DNA from: a virus
Taxonomy: Duplodnaviria; Caudoviricetes
Length of the DNA stretch: 64,000 bases
Direction: 5' to 3' (one strand)
Virus record (IMG/VR): IMGVR_UViG_3300030330_005626
Location: 1 to 64,000 of that record
How positions within the stretch are numbered: position 1 is the stretch's first letter; each line of letters opens with the position of its first letter. The notes under the pieces are model-generated. The model worked only from the letters and a program-made list of their open reading frames with translations, made no database searches and had not been told where the DNA came from. Both the position numbers and the translations under genes were made by a program. Positions 1-54,651 of the stretch are shown piece after piece.

Positions 1-3
1 CTT

Positions 4-36
4 TTGGCACGCGGCGGGCGGCACGTTGCGTGCCAA
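4..36. promoter_or_regulatory. Palindromic TTGGCACG-N17-CGTGCCAA element (face-to-face sigma54 -24/-12-like sites), copy 1
   Basis: TTGGCACG 4-11 and CGTGCCAA 29-36; both strands give TGGCAC-N7-GC spacing. Confidence 0.55.
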
Positions 37-129
37 AAAAGTTTGGGGAGTTTTTTTCGGCGTGCTACCTTTCTGTGTTCCCCACACAGTTTCCTTTCAT
101 TTGTTTATTCCCCGCGTTGTTGCGAGAAA

Positions 130-645
130 TTTTTTTACTGGTGCTTCCTCGTCCCTAACAAGGATCGCGTACCCTGTTCGCTACGTTAGGCTTGCCTAGA
201 CTGTGTTCTGTCTCCCAGTAAATTTATAGCTCGGTTTCATGTTAATTCTAACACTACTCGCGAGCGTCCTGCTTTGTGCCACATGACTGCACCCAGCTTT
301 ATGAAGGTTGCGACCCCTCTCTCTTGGGTTTCATCCCAAGGCTGAACAGGACAAGTTGTTTGACGGTCAAATGCCAAGCGAACTCACGTTTCTTTTCTAG
401 GTTAATTCCTACCTCAAAGGATCATCCGCTCTTCTGAGCTTACCAGTTAGGCGCGTCTCCCGCGTTGCTTGGCTACGGGTATGTTTTTCTGACCATCAAA
501 ATCTGGAACCCACGTTGATTGCTCGGTTCGCCTGACAGGTTACATCGACCAAGCTCGGAGTCTACTCCGCAGGGTTCCTTAAATTGTTGTGCCACTGTAA
601 AGGTCGTCTCTTTCACCGCCTTCAGAGGTGGCTTCCGTGAGAAGT
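130..645 (-). ncRNA. Candidate large (~520 nt) structured non-coding RNA
   Basis: No credible ORF; GC-richer than flanks; many stem-loops on minus strand, several with GNRA-like loops (CTTGGG/CCCAAG, CGGAG/CTCCG, CGCG-GGAGA-CGCG, TAGGC/GCCTA, TTTACTGG/CCAGTAAA); TTGACA at 677-672 upstream. Confidence 0.55.
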
Positions 646-685
646 ATTACTCTCACGAACTGCGTTAATTATGTCAAAAAATTGC

Positions 686-1096
686 TCACTCGTCAATCTT
701 AATTTTTGTAGGAGAGAAGGCCCACACCCCATCCCTTCTTATCTCTACGATCCACGCTTCAGGAACTCTAATCGACTCATCGCTTTGTAAAACGAAACTT
801 TTGTGTAGATAAGGATTGTAAGTAATCTTCTCCCATTTGCCAGAGCAACCAGAAGCAGGATCATCAATCACGGATTCTCTCATTCTTCTGCCCTGAATGT
901 AAGCGTGAACGTTTTTGCGTTTCTCATCGCGAACCTTCTGATTACCTTTAGGGCCAACCCTTAATATGGGTTTAGCTATTGCGATCTCTGTAACGTGATC
1001 CTCAACAATCCCCTTGTCATTCCTCACGCTGTAAACATACGTGCCGTCTTCGAGAGTCTTGTGAAGGTTGCGGTAGACTTGTACTTGTCCTTTCAT
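686..1096 (-). CDS. Conserved phage hypothetical protein (VYRNLHK...KRKNVHA...YNPY type)
   Basis: 136-aa ORF directly behind TTGACT-N16-TATAAT. Confidence 0.7.
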   Translation of the reverse strand: MKGQVQVYRNLHKTLEDGTYVYSVRNDKGIVEDHVTEIAIAKPILRVGPKGNQKVRDEKRKNVHAYIQGRRMRESVIDDPASGCSGKWEKITYNPYLHKSFVLQSDESIRVPEAWIVEIRRDGVWAFSPTKIKIDE

Positions 1097-1103
1097 GCGT
1101 CCG

Positions 1104-1131
1104 ATTATAAAGCAATGAGATTATTAGTCAA
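1104..1131 (-). promoter_or_regulatory. sigma70-type promoter, leaderless (TTGACT-N16-TATAAT-N7-ATG)
   Basis: Read directly upstream of ATG 1096. Confidence 0.75.
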
Positions 1132-1299
1132 CGAAAATCGCTCGAAAGATTCCTTTTATATGAAAGAAGATTCTTGAGTAGTGCTTGGCTTGAACCTGAT
1201 AAGTGATGGCCTTGCAGTGAAGTTGTATCTGTTCTTGCGCTCCCATACAAATAAGATACACCATTTCTTAAATAAGTCAACAGAATTTCTTAAAAAAAA

Positions 1300-1332
1300 T
1301 TGGCACGCGAGCGGCTGCAAGTTCCGTGCCAA
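1300..1332. promoter_or_regulatory. Palindromic TTGGCACG-N17-CGTGCCAA element, copy 2; minus strand is a consensus sigma54 promoter TGGCAC-GGAAC-TTGCA
   Basis: TTGGCACG 1300-1307, CGTGCCAA 1325-1332. Confidence 0.65.
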
Positions 1333-1404
1333 AAAAATATTAATAAATTTTAATTATAATTAATAAATATATATATGTTTGTTTCTTTGTATATGTAGAT
1401 TGCT

Positions 1405-1498
1405 TATTTAGAACTTATTTCAATATATTTGGCTCTTATTTATTTGTACTTATTTGGCTTTTATTTCGCTATTATTTACTCCTTATTTGGGCATATTT
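1405..1498. repeat. Helically phased TATTT array (~10-11 bp period)
   Basis: TATTT starts at 1405, 1416, 1426, 1437, 1451, 1462, 1473, 1484, 1494 (extra copy at 1441). Confidence 0.65.
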
Positions 1499-2598
1499 CT
1501 ACCAGCATTTTCAAGCATCTCAAAGAGGTCTTCTGGGATGAGAGAAGCCGTGTCCTCGACGGGCGCGGTATCGGGTAGAACAATCTTAACAGGCTTATTC
1601 TTGGGCTTGGGTGCTGGAGGCACAGGTTCCACTGGCTTGACAGGCTCGATTGATTTGGCTTCATCAAGTGCCATGAGATAATCCTGACCTTTGGAGGTGA
1701 GGGCGCGACCACCGCGATCAATCTCCATGAGGTTCTCCTTCTGAAGATACATCTCGAAGTCTCTCTGTAAGCAGGACTTGGTAAGACCAGTCTTGGCAGC
1801 GAGGTAAGTCAACGAGCTATTCTTTCTCTCAGCCATGATGCGAAGAAGCTGAAGTTCGATGCGACTCAAGCCGAGAGGCAAGATACCGAGGTGTTGCTTT
1901 AACTCAGACCACTGGGTCTCACCGAACTTGTTACCTTGGGTCGCCGCCATGTAATTGTTAATGTGGTTGGCCATCTTCTGGGCAGCGCGAGCGTTACCGC
2001 GAAGAACAGGGGCAAGCTCATTGAGCACACCGTCTTTGAACTTTGCGCTAGTCGTGCGAGAGATGATCTCGCCAAGATCGTCGTAGGAATACTCCTCTAG
2101 ATCAATTCTTTCGCAGCGATCCATGAGAGCGTGGAAAATGCTCTGCGCCTCGGTGGTGGCAAACATGAACGAAACCATGCGAAAATCAAAGTCTACCACA
2201 AAATCCTCGTAGGAAAACTGAGTGCGATTCTCAGGATTGGGATTGAGGATCGTGAGCAACGCCATCGTAACGTCCTTGGGTAGCTCGCTTGCCTCGTCGA
2301 GTAAGATCGTGCACTCGTTACCGTGAACGTGTGGAATGATGATCTGGTTGAAGAACTGCTTGAGGCTCTTGACCGTGGAACAGTTGATCTCAAGGAACTT
2401 CTTGGTGCCACCCTCGGAGTTCATAAGGTTCTTGGCTACGGCCTTTGCTAAAGTAGTTTTGCCGCAACCCTTGGGGGCTACGAACATGAGGTGGGGCAGA
2501 ATGCTGGTCGCTTCGTATGACTTCATAAGAAACGACAGTTTAGCCTTGGCTACATCCTGACCTACGATACCCTCGAAGTAATCTTTGTTGTGTTCCAT
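1483..2598 (-). CDS. ruvB: RuvB-like Holliday junction branch-migration AAA+ ATPase with Pro-rich C-terminal tail
   Basis: Walker A APKGCGKTT, Walker B LLDE, ATT sensor, RGNAR, C-terminal E-x-YL...GRALT. Confidence 0.85.
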   Translation of the reverse strand: MEHNKDYFEGIVGQDVAKAKLSFLMKSYEATSILPHLMFVAPKGCGKTTLAKAVAKNLMNSEGGTKKFLEINCSTVKSLKQFFNQIIIPHVHGNECTILLDEASELPKDVTMALLTILNPNPENRTQFSYEDFVVDFDFRMVSFMFATTEAQSIFHALMDRCERIDLEEYSYDDLGEIISRTTSAKFKDGVLNELAPVLRGNARAAQKMANHINNYMAATQGNKFGETQWSELKQHLGILPLGLSRIELQLLRIMAERKNSSLTYLAAKTGLTKSCLQRDFEMYLQKENLMEIDRGGRALTSKGQDYLMALDEAKSIEPVKPVEPVPPAPKPKNKPVKIVLPDTAPVEDTASLIPEDLFEMLENAGRNMPK

Positions 2599-2604
2599 AT
2601 GAGT

Positions 2605-2633
2605 AGTATGCTTTAGTTTTGGTGTAGAGTCAA
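2605..2633 (-). promoter_or_regulatory. sigma70-type promoter, leaderless (TTGACT-N17-CATACT-N6-ATG)
   Basis: Upstream of ruvB ATG 2598. Confidence 0.7.
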
Positions 2634-2675
2634 TAACTTAATTAAGTAAAAAATATTAATTATAATTAATAATAA

Positions 2676-2996
2676 TTACCAATTGTTTTTATCGTTATCA
2701 AAGTTAGATACCTTGAAATCAACCGTACCTTCTGATTCAACTTCAGAAGAATTAGTATCATTGGTTTTGCCATCTAAATCCTGTACATTGAATTGGATTG
2801 TGTTTGCTCTGGATTCGATCTCTTTCTTCATGTCGTTTGAAGACACGGAGATTTGCTCGGAAGATAAACCAAGAGTTTCTGCGTATCTGCGAGATACGAG
2901 CACGTTTGCCTCTGGACGAAGCACCGAGTTGAGTTCCGCAAGAGCTACAGATACGAAGCTTGTTGCGCCTTTTGTTTTGCCTCTTTTTCCTGCCAT
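2676..2996 (-). CDS. Hypothetical protein, basic N-terminus and acidic C-terminus
   Basis: ORF behind TTGACT-N17-GATACT-N6-ATG. Confidence 0.7.
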   Translation of the reverse strand: MAGKRGKTKGATSFVSVALAELNSVLRPEANVLVSRRYAETLGLSSEQISVSSNDMKKEIESRANTIQFNVQDLDGKTNDTNSSEVESEGTVDFKVSNFDNDKNNW

Positions 2997-3044
2997 GAGT
3001 CTAGTATCAGAAAATTTTTTAAATAAGTCAAATTATTTTTAATA

Positions 3045-13120: not shown

Positions 13121-13429
13121 TTAATCAACAATATTTTCACGCTTATATTTGAGCTTTAAGAAATCACAAATATCATAAATATTATTATCTTTTTTGAGAC
13201 TAATTGCGATAGTTTTTAACCCTTTTTTTAGGTATATTTCTAAGTCCTGAAGATCGACTTGTACTGCGCCCAATTTATATTCAATTAATATAAATAATTC
13301 GCCGTCGTTTAATGTACCCTGCCACTGGTACTTGGACATTTTATATAAACCATCAAGCCTTTTATTTTTTAATGCATTGCAGCCTTTTTGTGAAATTATT
13401 TTAAAAGACATTATTTCATCCTTTGACAA
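13121..13429 (-). CDS. Hypothetical protein
   Basis: 102-aa ORF overlapping sigma factor end. Confidence 0.5.
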   Translation of the reverse strand: MSKDEIMSFKIISQKGCNALKNKRLDGLYKMSKYQWQGTLNDGELFILIEYKLGAVQVDLQDLEIYLKKGLKTIAISLKKDNNIYDICDFLKLKYKRENIVD

Positions 13430-14280
13430 ACCAAATCTTTAAGTTTAGCCATTGCAATTGTTTCGATCTGCCTAATTCTTTCTCTAGTTACACCGAATTT
13501 ATCGCCAATGGATTCAAGAGTTTGACGTTTATCGCAGTCTAAAGCTTGCCTTTTTGATATAATATATCTTTCGCGGGAAGATAGCTTGCTCAAGCATTCG
13601 TATAATACTTTTGAATTGTTTTTATAAACATAAGCTTCATCGGGTGATTGATTACTTTTGTCCTCTATGATATCCATCAATTCTTTTTCATCCCCTTCTG
13701 CGTCTGATATTAAAGAATTTAAAGATGGTATTTGCAGCGAGCTTTCGTTTAATAATTTTACTCTATCAACTGATACGCCAACTTTTTTAGATATTTCTTT
13801 AACAGATGGATAACAATTATATTTTTCTTTATATTGCTCTTTAAATTTTATTATATTTAATTTCTGCTGGATAGAACCCGTTGGAATTCTAATTGTTCTC
13901 CCTTGGTTTGATAAAGCCCTTCTGATTTTTTGCTTTATCCAGAAAGCTGCGTAAGTAGAAAATTTAGCTCCAACGTTAGGTTTAAAGTTCTCAACGGCTT
14001 TCACCAAGCCAAGGTTGCCCTCAGAAATTAAGTCTTGTAATTCTAAACCAAGAGAATTAAAATCTTTAGCTATTTTTATTACTAATCTTAGGTTTGAATT
14101 AATTAAGATTTCTTTTGCTTCTTTACCTTTTTTTCTTGCAATGGTGCTACAACAACTCTTATTTTTAGACCATTTTAGCATCCGCTCAAACAATTCTATC
14201 TCCTCTTTTCGTGACAATAAAGGATATTTAGAGCTCTCTTCGTAATAAATATTTAAAAGGTAAGATTCTTCAGATGGCAT
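13411..14280 (-). CDS. RNA polymerase sigma-70 family factor (RpoD/RpoS-like)
   Basis: LINSNLRLVIKIAK, DLISEGNLGL, KFSTYAAFWIKQ, RTIRIP, TLESIG..GVTRERIRQIE. Confidence 0.92.
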   Translation of the reverse strand: MPSEESYLLNIYYEESSKYPLLSRKEEIELFERMLKWSKNKSCCSTIARKKGKEAKEILINSNLRLVIKIAKDFNSLGLELQDLISEGNLGLVKAVENFKPNVGAKFSTYAAFWIKQKIRRALSNQGRTIRIPTGSIQQKLNIIKFKEQYKEKYNCYPSVKEISKKVGVSVDRVKLLNESSLQIPSLNSLISDAEGDEKELMDIIEDKSNQSPDEAYVYKNNSKVLYECLSKLSSRERYIISKRQALDCDKRQTLESIGDKFGVTRERIRQIETIAMAKLKDLVCQRMK

Positions 14281-18243: not shown

Positions 18244-18969
18244 ATGAAAGAATTTGAAATAGATTTTACAGAGGAAATAAATGCTCAAGCTTCAGAGGGG
18301 GCAGACTCTTTAGATAAGTTAACTTATAAAAAAACTCCAGAAGTATTTTTAAAAGTCGCTGAAAAAGACTTTAAATACATGGATATAAATATAAAGCCTC
18401 TTTTAGAGCTTTACCCTCCCGCTAATTCTAGCCAACAAACCAAAAATGAACTTCTGCAAGTTAAAAATTTTATGGAGCGATCCCACTCCAAAGAGTTTAC
18501 TTCCAATCTTAAAAGTATGAATGATGAGCCAGCTATGTTTATAATAGATTACTATAAAAAAGCAAGCGGCAAAGAAGTTCCAAAAACAATTTTAGGTTTC
18601 ATAACAGGAGGGGATGTTGAAGTTTTAGCGATGAAACTTAAAATGCATTTTAATAGACCGCGACCTTTTCAAATGGCAGAATATTATGACGTTAATTTAA
18701 ATTACAATAAAACAATTCAACACGGTGCAGCAGATGCGCCGTCTTATCCAAGTGGTCATACTTTATCGGCTTATTTTGCAGCTAGAGTTTTAAGTTATTT
18801 GTATCCAAAATATGAAGATGAGCTATTGAGAAGAGCCATGATGGTTGCTGATTCTAGAATTGCAGAAGGCGTTCACTTTAAAAGCGACAATATGTTTTCT
18901 TTTTATTTGGTTGACAGGGTTTTAATGCCAGCTTTCATAAAAGCATATGACAAAACAAGAAATAATTAA
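18244..18969 (+). CDS. PAP2-family phosphatase / vanadium haloperoxidase-like
   Basis: K-x6-RP (KMHFNRPRP), SYPSGH, SRIAEGVHFKSD. Confidence 0.85.
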   Translation: MKEFEIDFTEEINAQASEGADSLDKLTYKKTPEVFLKVAEKDFKYMDINIKPLLELYPPANSSQQTKNELLQVKNFMERSHSKEFTSNLKSMNDEPAMFIIDYYKKASGKEVPKTILGFITGGDVEVLAMKLKMHFNRPRPFQMAEYYDVNLNYNKTIQHGAADAPSYPSGHTLSAYFAARVLSYLYPKYEDELLRRAMMVADSRIAEGVHFKSDNMFSFYLVDRVLMPAFIKAYDKTRNN

Positions 18970-19369
18970 TTCTTTATCTTTTACTTATTGTAGGATTAAA
19001 CCATCAAAAATACATGGTGTTGGAGTTTTTGCCATAGTAGATATAGATAAAGGTGTGAACTTATTCCCAGACTGCTCTTGCGACTTAAAAAAAATAAAAA
19101 AAATAAACAAAAAAGAAATTTCTAATCTAGCTCCTGACATTTTAAAAATGATGAGCGATTTCCTAATTGAAAGTAAAACTCATTATTTCACAACTACGTC
19201 TTTAAACAATATAAACATATCTTACTTCTTGAATCATTCAGACCAACCAAATTGCGAGTGGGTAGAAAAAGATGACTCCTTTCGGCCTTTGAAAAACATA
19301 AAAAACCAAGAGGAGCTAACTATAAACTACGAAAAATATCTTGAAAGCGACCTTATAAAAAATGTATAA
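18947..19369 (+). CDS. SET-domain protein (lysine methyltransferase-like)
   Basis: SKIHGVGVFA, FLNHSDQPN, EELTINY. Confidence 0.85.
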   Translation: MTKQEIINSLSFTYCRIKPSKIHGVGVFAIVDIDKGVNLFPDCSCDLKKIKKINKKEISNLAPDILKMMSDFLIESKTHYFTTTSLNNINISYFLNHSDQPNCEWVEKDDSFRPLKNIKNQEELTINYEKYLESDLIKNV

Positions 19370-19712
19370 AAATTTAGCACCAGATATTCAAAGGCAAAGA
19401 CTTGTCATAGAAGGAACTTTACATAATCCATTTAAAGCAGAAGAAATGGATCGATTTTGTAGGGAAATGACAAAAGTATTAAACATGACAGAAGTTACTG
19501 CCCCGTTCTGCAACTACGACCCAGATTACGGTTGGTGCGCTTATGTCCACTGGAAAGAGAGCGGTATGCATATCTACGCTTGGGACGACAGAACTCCTTG
19601 CTTCTTCTCTGTGGATATCTATACTTGCAGAGAGTTTCAGGTAGAAAGCGCGTTAAATTATGTAAAAGATTTTTTTAAACAAAACTTAATTGAAGTTACT
19701 TGGAAAGACTAG
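19362..19712 (+). CDS. S-adenosylmethionine decarboxylase-like pyruvoyl proenzyme
   Basis: KES self-cleavage site, H-I-Y-A-W, DIYTC. Confidence 0.65.
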   Translation: MYKNLAPDIQRQRLVIEGTLHNPFKAEEMDRFCREMTKVLNMTEVTAPFCNYDPDYGWCAYVHWKESGMHIYAWDDRTPCFFSVDIYTCREFQVESALNYVKDFFKQNLIEVTWKD

Positions 19713-25948: not shown

Positions 25949-26590
25949 TTATTGTTTTGTGTATTTATATTTTTTGACTATTTTAAGAGCTTCGATTCTA
26001 GCGTAATACAATCTAGACATAACAGTTCCTACTGGAATTTTTAATTTTTTTGAAATCTCTTTGTACTCCATTCCGTCTCTATGGTGCATCCTAAGCACAT
26101 CTCTGTGGTTGGGTTTAAGCTTTCTTAAAACCTTATCTATTAAAAGTTTATTTTCTTTAAGAGACTCTAAGCTTTCAATATTAGAATAAGGTAATTTTTC
26201 TGTTTGCTCGTTGTAATTTATATTTACTTCAACTTGGTGTCCGTCATTATACTTGTCGCTTCTATTAAACTCCCCTGATAAGTTTATACACTTTTCTATG
26301 TCAATAAATCCGTATTTTTTATTTTTTCTGTACTCGTCTAAAAAGTTTCTGTTTGCGATAGAACAAAACCAAGTCTTGAAGGCGCAATTACCTTTAAAGG
26401 TCTTAATTTTTTGCCAAGACTTGACAAGGGTTTGAGAGTATATTTCTTCCCCTAGAGAGTCATTACCTTTACAGTATTTAAGAATCCACGATTTAAAGTA
26501 ATGTTTATTTCTACAAATAAGCTCGTCAAAAGCAGCGCGGTTGCCCCTTTTGCACATAGAAACAAGCTGTTTGTCGGTTTTATTTTCCAA
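25949..26590 (-). CDS. ECF (RpoE-like) sigma factor
   Basis: AAFDEL, FKGNCAFKTW..IA.N, YKEIS..L.IPVGTVMSRLYYAR. Confidence 0.9.
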   Translation of the reverse strand: MENKTDKQLVSMCKRGNRAAFDELICRNKHYFKSWILKYCKGNDSLGEEIYSQTLVKSWQKIKTFKGNCAFKTWFCSIANRNFLDEYRKNKKYGFIDIEKCINLSGEFNRSDKYNDGHQVEVNINYNEQTEKLPYSNIESLESLKENKLLIDKVLRKLKPNHRDVLRMHHRDGMEYKEISKKLKIPVGTVMSRLYYARIEALKIVKKYKYTKQ

Positions 26591-54248: not shown

Positions 54249-54651
54249 GGGGGCGTACTGGTATCGATTTAATATCAGACGCTAAAATAGCAAGTCAAGG
54301 ATGATAGTTGGCCTTGTAAAAATCTATCTAGGTATTCAACTGCCAAAACTGAAGTTGATATGGCTCCTTCCTTAGCTGAAGCTGACGCGATTCTCGCTAA
54401 GTTCGGTTGGGCTGAAGAGGCTGCTGTAGCTGCGTAAGCTACCCGTCCTACTCTGGATGCTCGTTAAGGAGCTAGGGCGTCGATAACGAGCGAAAAAAGC
54501 TAGGAATGAGATGGTCTAGTCTAAATAAAGAGTCTCAAACCTCGTGTGTAGGTGTTAGTGACAAAGCGCGAGTGTACAACACTGACTAAACTTGTAGAAA
54601 TTTAAGTTAACGGTATTAAAGACAGGGGTTCAACTCCCCTCGCCTCCACCA
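54249..54651 (+). ncRNA. ssrA: tmRNA, tag AKTEVDMAPSLAEADAILAKFGWAEEAAVAA (54342-54437)
   Basis: GGGGGCG/CGCCTCC-ACCA acceptor with G3.U, T-arm GGGG-TTCAACT-CCCC, tag ORF ending in AA-stop. Confidence 0.93.

Follow-up and report, generated by a model that had tools for sequence, protein, structure and literature searches.

A family of 33-bp intergenic palindromes punctuates the accessory-gene region in a clade of uncultured large marine phages

A palindrome family in phage accessory-gene arrays

Two copies of a 33-bp palindromic element lie at 4-36 and 1300-1332 of a 64,000-nt stretch of the Caudoviricetes record IMGVR_UViG_3300030330_005626 (positions 1 to 64,000 of that record; hereafter the window), and they belong to a family of intergenic palindromes, TTGGCACG-N6-GCWGC-N6-CGTGCCAA, that punctuates the accessory-gene region in a clade of uncultured large marine phages. 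The best explanation, held at a probability of roughly 45%, is that the palindrome serves as a duplex-DNA site for a symmetric factor that controls or insulates the promoters of small gene cassettes and is also the point at which these cassettes cross over, and it would thus form a cassette border comparable to the promoter-early stem-loop (PeSL) of T4-type phages. Each element stands at the end of one small expression unit downstream of a gene for a RuvB-like protein. An A/T tract lies on one of its sides, and beyond it, in helical register with the element, a predicted sigma70-type promoter, mostly for a gene of leaderless layout. A dimeric or two-headed DNA-binding factor would occupy the double-stranded palindrome and control or insulate the cassette promoters, and cassettes would be exchanged, lost and reordered by recombination at the element, as no other sequence is common to all cassettes. 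Family membership, position, the one-sided predicted promoter, phasing, the lack of pairing covariation and the turnover of cassettes at the elements are observed in the sequences, and from them binding by a protein, an effect on regulation and use of the element itself in recombination are inferred. If the proposal is true, T4-type phages are not alone in having modular regulatory linkers through which accessory genes are both controlled and shuffled, and such linkers arose independently in an abundant uncultured marine phage group. The invariant palindrome also offers a handle to isolate its putative binding protein and to recognise the accessory-gene region in metagenomic contigs.

The two copies in the window are as follows.

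4-36, no strand: element copy 1, centre GCGGC; ends the cassette with the gp82-like gene and the RNA modules
1300-1332, no strand: element copy 2, centre GCTGC; T8 follows on the minus strand; first element after the RuvB-like gene

Both are exact TTGGCACG-N17-CGTGCCAA sequences with a 17-nt spacer, as the initial annotation of this DNA had described. No third site with two or fewer mismatches is present in the window, and none of 100 dinucleotide shuffles contains a match. The same annotation had treated the spacers as different, which holds for their sequences, but they are not unrelated, as 11 of the 17 positions are identical in the same orientation and the pair are therefore two copies of one element. 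It had also called for a search for further copies with conserved spacing, and more than 100 copies with the 17-nt spacing are found in related phage contigs. A scan of IMG/VR with the exact pattern recovers 118 copies in 110 stretches from 32 contigs. The centre GCWGC is common to 103 of these, which occur in 19 contigs as arrays of copies 357-3021 bp apart (median 1103 bp); the remaining 15 comprise 12 that read as unrelated single matches in long open reading frames (ORFs) and three family members with one change in the centre. The relaxed pattern GGCAC-N7-GCWGC-N7-GTGCC matches at least 171 loci, which include at least 49 canonical and at least 76 other distinct sequences; among the latter, at least seven of those listed are family-like and the rest look like random hits to G+C-rich coding DNA. 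The centre-restricted pattern matches twice in 185,579 species genomes, once by chance within a gene and once in a phage-like contig binned into a metagenome-assembled genome (MAG). De-duplication leaves 85 unique copies, including those from 10 close relatives of the window recovered from metagenomes, and the literature search found no published description of the element among the matches listed.

The placement of the family within a phage genome is clearest in G001, a 162-kb relative estimated to be 96% complete. It contains exactly seven copies, all with perfect arms and all at 6.3-15.1 kb, and elsewhere in this genome no site with three or fewer mismatches occurs except for one chance match. 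The first 2.6 kb of the window are syntenic with G001 in inverted orientation, and in both the RuvB-like gene is followed by the first element; the RuvB-like gene precedes an element array in G006 as well.

Sequence conservation within the element

The consensus over the 85 unique copies is TTGGCACG GGACGTGCAGCCCGCCC CGTGCCAA. The 8-bp arms and the central GC-W-GC are fixed, positions 9-14 are variable and partly A/T, and positions 20-25 are G/C. For the 54 distinct loops, Watson-Crick pairing between the inner positions is not above the level expected for independent positions (e.g., paired in 23 of 54 loops, with 28.4 expected). The 280,642 bases of array sequence contain 143 exact copies, 13 with a single change in one arm and none in which a variant arm is compensated by the other. 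The 13 changes fall at position 1 (seven), position 7 (C to T, five) and position 2 (one), with GGCA never changed. Fixed arms, the lack of covariation and the lack of compensated variants together indicate that the arm sequence itself is conserved and is more than a stem.

The loop can be inverted in place, as orthologous sites in related contigs are found as exact reverse complements of each other, including the orthologue of window copy 2 in contig L119. Two distinct hairpins share the 8-bp arms and have loops of only 6-7 nt and T-rich tails (L004 near 1973, and L010 near 2997, the latter being the L065 site). One of these short-loop hairpins adjoins a tRNA directly, just ahead of a full element.

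Promoter linkage and helical register

A predicted promoter of the form TTGACN-16/17-NANNNT is present on exactly one side of 57 of the 85 unique copies under a strict rule and on both sides of one, and a relaxed rule extends the one-sided call to 62 of 85. These promoters often carry a TG extension, include a TTGACT-N16/17-CATACT type and usually have A- and T-tracts upstream. In 33 of the 62 copies with a promoter call, a frame of 30 or more codons begins with an ATG 6-7 nt past the -10 box, which is the layout of a leaderless gene. Starts of the leaderless type are also seen in the window at 1253-1246, 1104-1096 and 2605-2598, and many genes of the phage group appear leaderless; the apparent leaderless layout bears on the host that these phages infect. 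On its other side the element abuts a stop codon (often within 0-10 nt), the 3′ end of a tRNA or a terminator, and in 15 of the 57 copies a strong separate hairpin with a T-run lies directly upstream.

The distance from the end of the element to the -35 box is mostly 11, 19-20, 29-31, 38-42, 50-51, 58-60, 69-71 or 91 nt. Of 30 spacer classes, 24 have a distance of 9, 0 or 1 modulo 10 (at a period of 10, Rayleigh R 0.69 and p 6e-7, with nothing at 12-13). When only distinct distance groups are counted, 8 of 11 are in register (p 0.004). Linkers of unrelated sequence (0, ~10 or ~40 nt) preserve the register, and the centre of the element falls near -62, -71, -81, -91 and so on from the predicted start site. 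A second palindrome, TATGCA-N3-TGCATA, is present as a ~40-nt module between the element and the A/T tract in several related contigs (e.g., L006 and L054-L056); its insertion preserves the 10-bp register, and it is possibly another operator. No conserved site upstream of the elements was found across the copies.

The position of the element between one transcription unit and the next also raises an alternative, considered unlikely but deserving some weight, in which it acts as an RNA hairpin that terminates, attenuates or is cut from transcripts of the upstream cassette, with its sequence kept by a specific RNA-binding protein or nuclease. Both window copies do fold as hairpins on the gene strand (-18.7 and -13.8 kcal/mol). 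The initial annotation had reported that T-runs precede and A-runs follow the elements, the reverse of a terminator, which is correct for copy 1 on the plus strand and fails for copy 2. On the plus strand, copy 2 has A-runs on either side, so that on the gene (minus) strand its hairpin is followed by T8 and has the look of a terminator, while copy 1 read on the minus strand is followed by AAAAG. At least five T are found within the next eight bases in 19 of the 57 copies, elements often lie 0-10 nt past a stop codon or directly past a tRNA 3′ end, and the two short-loop hairpins with the same arms have T-rich tails. PeSL stem-loops, moreover, are reported to terminate transcription (PMC2839356). 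The T-run is nevertheless missing in 38 of the 57 copies, and the strong terminators already present just upstream in 15 of 57 indicate that the element is not needed as a terminator. The inner stem is without covariation, compensated arm variants are lacking, and the orientation that prevails on the gene strand gives the less stable RNA (mean -17.4 against -19.2 kcal/mol). The 10-bp register with the downstream -35 box is, in addition, a property of DNA rather than of RNA. The fixed arms and centre, the absence of pairing covariation, the separate upstream terminators and the helical register thus argue for recognition of duplex DNA by a symmetric factor.

Several observations weigh against this duplex-DNA site. 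The most conservative phasing test gives p ~0.04 once any phase is allowed, and the phasing and orientation counts, made without tree correction, are not counts of independent events because the copies share descent. The promoters are predicted as consensus matches with unmapped start sites. A promoter of the same type is found without an element, for instance before the RuvB-like gene (TTGACT-17-CATACT, ending at 2605), and the element is accordingly dispensable for promoter function. In G001 no canonical binder is found among the families searched, with ParB (PF02195, absent from G006 also), tyrosine recombinase (PF00589), serine recombinase (PF00239) and Y1/RAYT (PF01797) all lacking. Finally, a role as an RNA hairpin would suit the two short-loop hairpins with the same arms and a T-run, as well as the T8 that follows copy 2.

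Cassette turnover at the elements

The genes between elements encode DUF932, L5 gp82, GP88 and cell-wall hydrolase proteins as well as proteins of no recognised kind. The cassette with the gp82 gene and the RNA modules and the cassette with the DUF932 gene are in swapped order in the window and G001, with elements between them. Contigs L115, L117 and L118 have in common with the window only positions 4-40, both flanks being different, and an identical 33-mer, loop included, is present in unrelated flanks. The swapped order and the replacement of flanks indicate that the elements are joints where cassettes exchange. The suggestion in the initial annotation that the sites could be cassette boundaries or recombination sites is supported by these comparisons, as the differences between relatives, in whole cassettes and in their order, fall exactly at the elements.

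It is a different and very unlikely matter that the element is the core site of a dedicated site-specific recombination system, similar to lox or attC, that moves the cassettes. Such a site would account for inverted arms flanking a fixed centre, for gain, loss and reordering of cassettes exactly at the elements, for the loop inversions and for the identical 33-mer, loop included, in unrelated flanks. However, G001 at 96% completeness contains no tyrosine recombinase, serine recombinase or Y1 HUH enzyme, and homologous recombination on short repeats together with hairpin-driven template switching explains the same patterns without a dedicated enzyme. A recombination site also leaves the link to promoter position unexplained.

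Resemblance to sigma54 sites

The palindrome was first noted as a pair of overlapping sigma54 (RpoN) promoter boxes, and the resemblance is exact. A GC at the sigma54 -12 position, in the arrangement GG-N10-GC, is found on all four strand readings of the two window copies because the centre of the element is GC-N-GC, so that on either strand a GC follows TGGCAC at a distance of 7 nt. Read on its minus strand, copy 2 is TGGCAC-GGAAC-TTGCA, as had been stated. The family as a whole matches the -24/-12 form TGGCAC-N5-(T/G)TGC(A/T), with GG-N10-GC invariant on both strands, and the gene strand of copy 2 is the full consensus. The extended -24 box is YTGGCACG in the compilation that Barrios et al. 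are said to have made in 1999, and the arm agrees with this box, as commonly quoted, at 8 of 8 positions.

One alternative is therefore that the element is a site for host sigma54 RNA polymerase in both orientations, where a stable closed complex would insulate cassettes from each other or form a roadblock between them, or would keep polymerase in store beside the early promoters; given a host activator, the site could also be a second promoter. This is regarded as doubtful, though with a real chance of being right. The three conserved blocks correspond to the sigma54 determinants with nothing left over, the GC lying exactly 7 nt past TGGCAC on both strands, and the variable stretches coincide with the non-conserved parts of sigma54 promoters. 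The 13 arm variants never touch GGCA. The better -12 reading of the loop (TGCA) faces the promoter in 42 of the 51 scorable copies and the opposite way in 9, a further 6 being ambiguous; by spacer class it does so in 24 of 28 (24 against 4). No phage-encoded binder of known kind was found in G001, and one relative's contig is binned in a MAG with rpoN, binning being weak evidence of host. A precedent is the sigma54-like promoter reported in Pseudomonas phage YuA (PMC10914365).

The surroundings of the element fit this alternative less well. G001 is without rpoN. For the activator family PF00158 it yields a match to the RuvB-like protein alone, a full-length RuvB homologue, and this match is confined to the P-loop (profile positions 21-62 of 168). 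Outside the elements single sigma54-like sites are few: G001 has 8, with 5 matches to the control, and G006 has 8, with 2. Inversion of the loop is tolerated in 9 of the 51 scorable copies, including exact flips at orthologous sites, and the short-loop variants retain the arms while losing the -12 spacing. Expression is already explained by the sigma70-type promoter that lies to the same side, and a transcript that started inside the element would place an untranslated leader without a ribosome-binding site before genes built to be leaderless. Compared with a sigma54 promoter, the element is always doubled face to face on one centre, can flip and has a sigma70-type promoter downstream, and both an activator gene (searched for in G001) and a conserved upstream activator site are missing. 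Actinophage hosts are not known to carry sigma54, and the leaderless layout and the actinophage-type families L5 gp82 and GP88 would fit such hosts; yet a search for WhiB in related records found it in none of five.

A more specific version, rated as quite improbable, takes host sigma54 polymerase as a DNA clamp. At each cassette border the face-to-face pair would keep a closed, silent complex bound ahead of the leaderless sigma70 promoter, on one face of the helix, thereby insulating or feeding the cassettes without an enhancer protein. If true, this would be a so far undescribed use of sigma54, and the palindrome gives a way to ask whether sigma54 polymerase has a role in phage infection. 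Readings of the element as an extracytoplasmic function (ECF) or FliA-type promoter were rejected against the consensus sequences as usually given, as the GGAAC-CGT spacing is 13 rather than 16-17 and GCCGAT is present in only three loops.

Comparison with known systems

The duplex-DNA cassette border proposed here has its closest counterpart in the PeSL of T4-type phages, described by Arbiol et al. 2010 (PMC2839356) and Comeau et al. 2014 (PMC4122927). In these reports the PeSL motif consists of a stem-loop, an AT-rich region and a sigma70 promoter, lies in hyperplastic regions and mediates modular shuffling. The present element likewise is part of a repeated intergenic composite in which a palindrome or stem-loop is followed by an A/T-rich segment, a sigma70-type promoter and a gene, among small non-essential genes; relatives differ by motif-bounded insertions, deletions and swaps, and the stem sequence itself is conserved in both cases. 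The differences are also considerable. The lineage is not T4-like and has a DnaE-type polymerase, the motif is unlike the GGGG...CCCC stems described for PeSL (PMC2839356), and terminator and promoter activity and mini-circles were measured for PeSL, whereas the present elements are known from sequence alone. The element is 33 bp long with fixed 8-bp arms, a fixed GCWGC, unpaired variable inner parts and mostly no T-run, and its genes are leaderless, lack a Shine-Dalgarno sequence and have their -35 spacing in a 10-bp register. As a different motif sequence in a phage that is not T4-like, the element is best considered a PeSL analogue and not a member of that family.

Positioning by helical turns is known from class I CRP sites, which lie near -61.5, -71.5, -82.5 and -92.5, and from the p4 site of phage phi29, which lies near -82. 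As in these systems, a palindrome precedes a sigma70 promoter at distances that increase by one helical turn at a time, with A/T-rich DNA between; the half-sites here, however, are 8 bp long and 17 bp apart, and the distances reach ~-140. The stoperators of cluster A mycobacteriophages such as L5 are 13-bp asymmetric sites in strict orientation that are bound by a known repressor. They resemble the present element in that many copies of a short site occur in short intergenic gaps along an early-gene block, with binding by a protein predicted here, and differ from it in that the present site is palindromic. Integron attC sites and repetitive extragenic palindromic (REP) sequences are also imperfect palindromes at the 3′ end of a cassette or gene, in which the outer arms are conserved and the inner parts vary. 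In contrast to these, no integrase or RAYT gene is found here (G001), each cassette has its own promoter, and the core sequences are unlike.

Genes and features of the window cassette

On the minus strand the order of features is the RuvB-like gene, a spacer, element 2, a promoter, a 40-codon frame, a second promoter, the gp82-family gene, a third promoter, the RNA modules M1 to M6 and element 1. Past element 1, beyond the start of the window, close relatives have the next cassette, with its promoter and DUF932-like gene. The features other than the two elements are as follows, with the promoters given as predictions.

1483-2598, minus strand: RuvB-like AAA+ protein with the RuvB C-terminal winged helix; precedes the element array in the window, G001 and G006
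1333-1482, no strand: A/T-rich spacer of 150 nt, 26-30% G+C, between the RuvB-like gene and element 2
1253-1280, minus strand: sigma70-type promoter, -35 TTGACT (1280-1275), 16 nt, -10 TATCTT (1258-1253); 19 nt past element 2
1124-1246, minus strand: 40-codon frame, ATG 6 nt past the -10 box (leaderless layout); kept in five close relatives
1104-1131, minus strand: second promoter-like site, TTGACT-16-TATAAT (11/12); ends 7 nt before the ATG of the gp82-like gene
686-1096, minus strand: 136-aa protein of the Phage_L5_gp82 family (profile match, E 1e-22)
668-696, minus strand: promoter-like TTGACG-17-CATAAT with TG extension, positioned so that its transcript would begin at the first RNA module
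37-664, minus strand: non-coding array of six self-folding modules, M1 585-664, M2 498-584, M3 362-497, M4 220-361, M5 133-219, M6 37-132

Five copies of CTTATTT at 1385-1500 have an iteron-like layout and could mark a replication or protein-loading site.

The non-coding RNA modules

The initial annotation had two ORFs and one large RNA bracketed by the elements. The ORFs are present at 686-1096 and 1124-1246, both on the minus strand, but the single large RNA resolves into several distinct modules in a row. None of the six reading frames opens in 37-685, even if one or another stop codon is read through, and the predicted fold is stronger on the minus strand (z -5.8, compared with -1.95). Among relatives with 88-97% identity, blocks of 80-142 nt are kept or lost as units with sharp edges, and each module folds alone with z of -2.9 to -3.5. 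Module M5 (133-219) is 77-85% identical in G001, where the adjoining protein is 37-49% identical, and is also kept in L294; across five sequences it has compensatory changes in 5 of 27 predicted pairs. Taken together, these features suggest that 37-664 is a series of small structured RNAs served by a predicted promoter of its own. A short hairpin motif, TYKCGCAAYAACGCGRG, recurs around the modules (window ~110-127 on the minus strand, L294 at 310 and 472, L017 at 1911, L116 at 742 and L119 at 1913) and may be a punctuation or processing signal.

The modules match no known family in the searches made. Rfam at gathering thresholds recovers only a tmRNA and four tRNAs in the window, and on positions 1-1500 with E up to 10 it returns four chance-level rows and no tRNA or known RNA in 37-685. 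Exact scans of IMG/VR give no match for a 22-mer of M2 and one contig for a 26-mer of M5. Parts of the stretch are present in six RNA runs; the four that were examined consist of assembled contigs, which carry no information on transcript ends or strand and in which DNA carry-over is possible. One 157-nt RNA contig (X19) spans 1097-1253, ending at the -10 box of the promoter past element 2, and it is given no weight.

Phage lineage and host

The window has a G+C content of 35.6% and encodes a DnaE-type polymerase, ribonucleotide reductase, ThyX, a RecA-like protein, DnaB, a primase, two sigma70-family proteins and sugar-nucleotide enzymes, a gene set that indicates a large phage. Runs from 12 studies, mostly labelled marine, contain the stretch. 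A blastn search with window positions 1-3000 found no match in phage records, and tblastn with the DnaE and RuvB-like proteins against phage records found distant matches only (~30% identity or less, from mixed hosts). No T4-like genes occur among the ORFs of the window and of the G001 array that were scanned against Pfam and PHROGs. A search of the ESM Atlas with the GDP-mannose dehydratase returns mostly viral clusters.

The two sigma70-family genes are on the minus strand at 13411-14280 and 25949-26590, one having regions 2-4 and the other being ECF-like. A SET-domain protein adjoins an S-adenosylmethionine decarboxylase-like protein at 18947-19712 on the plus strand. The tmRNA, at 54249-54651 on the plus strand, is of the one-piece type (135 bits) and has an unusually long predicted tag of 31 residues that ends in AAVAA.

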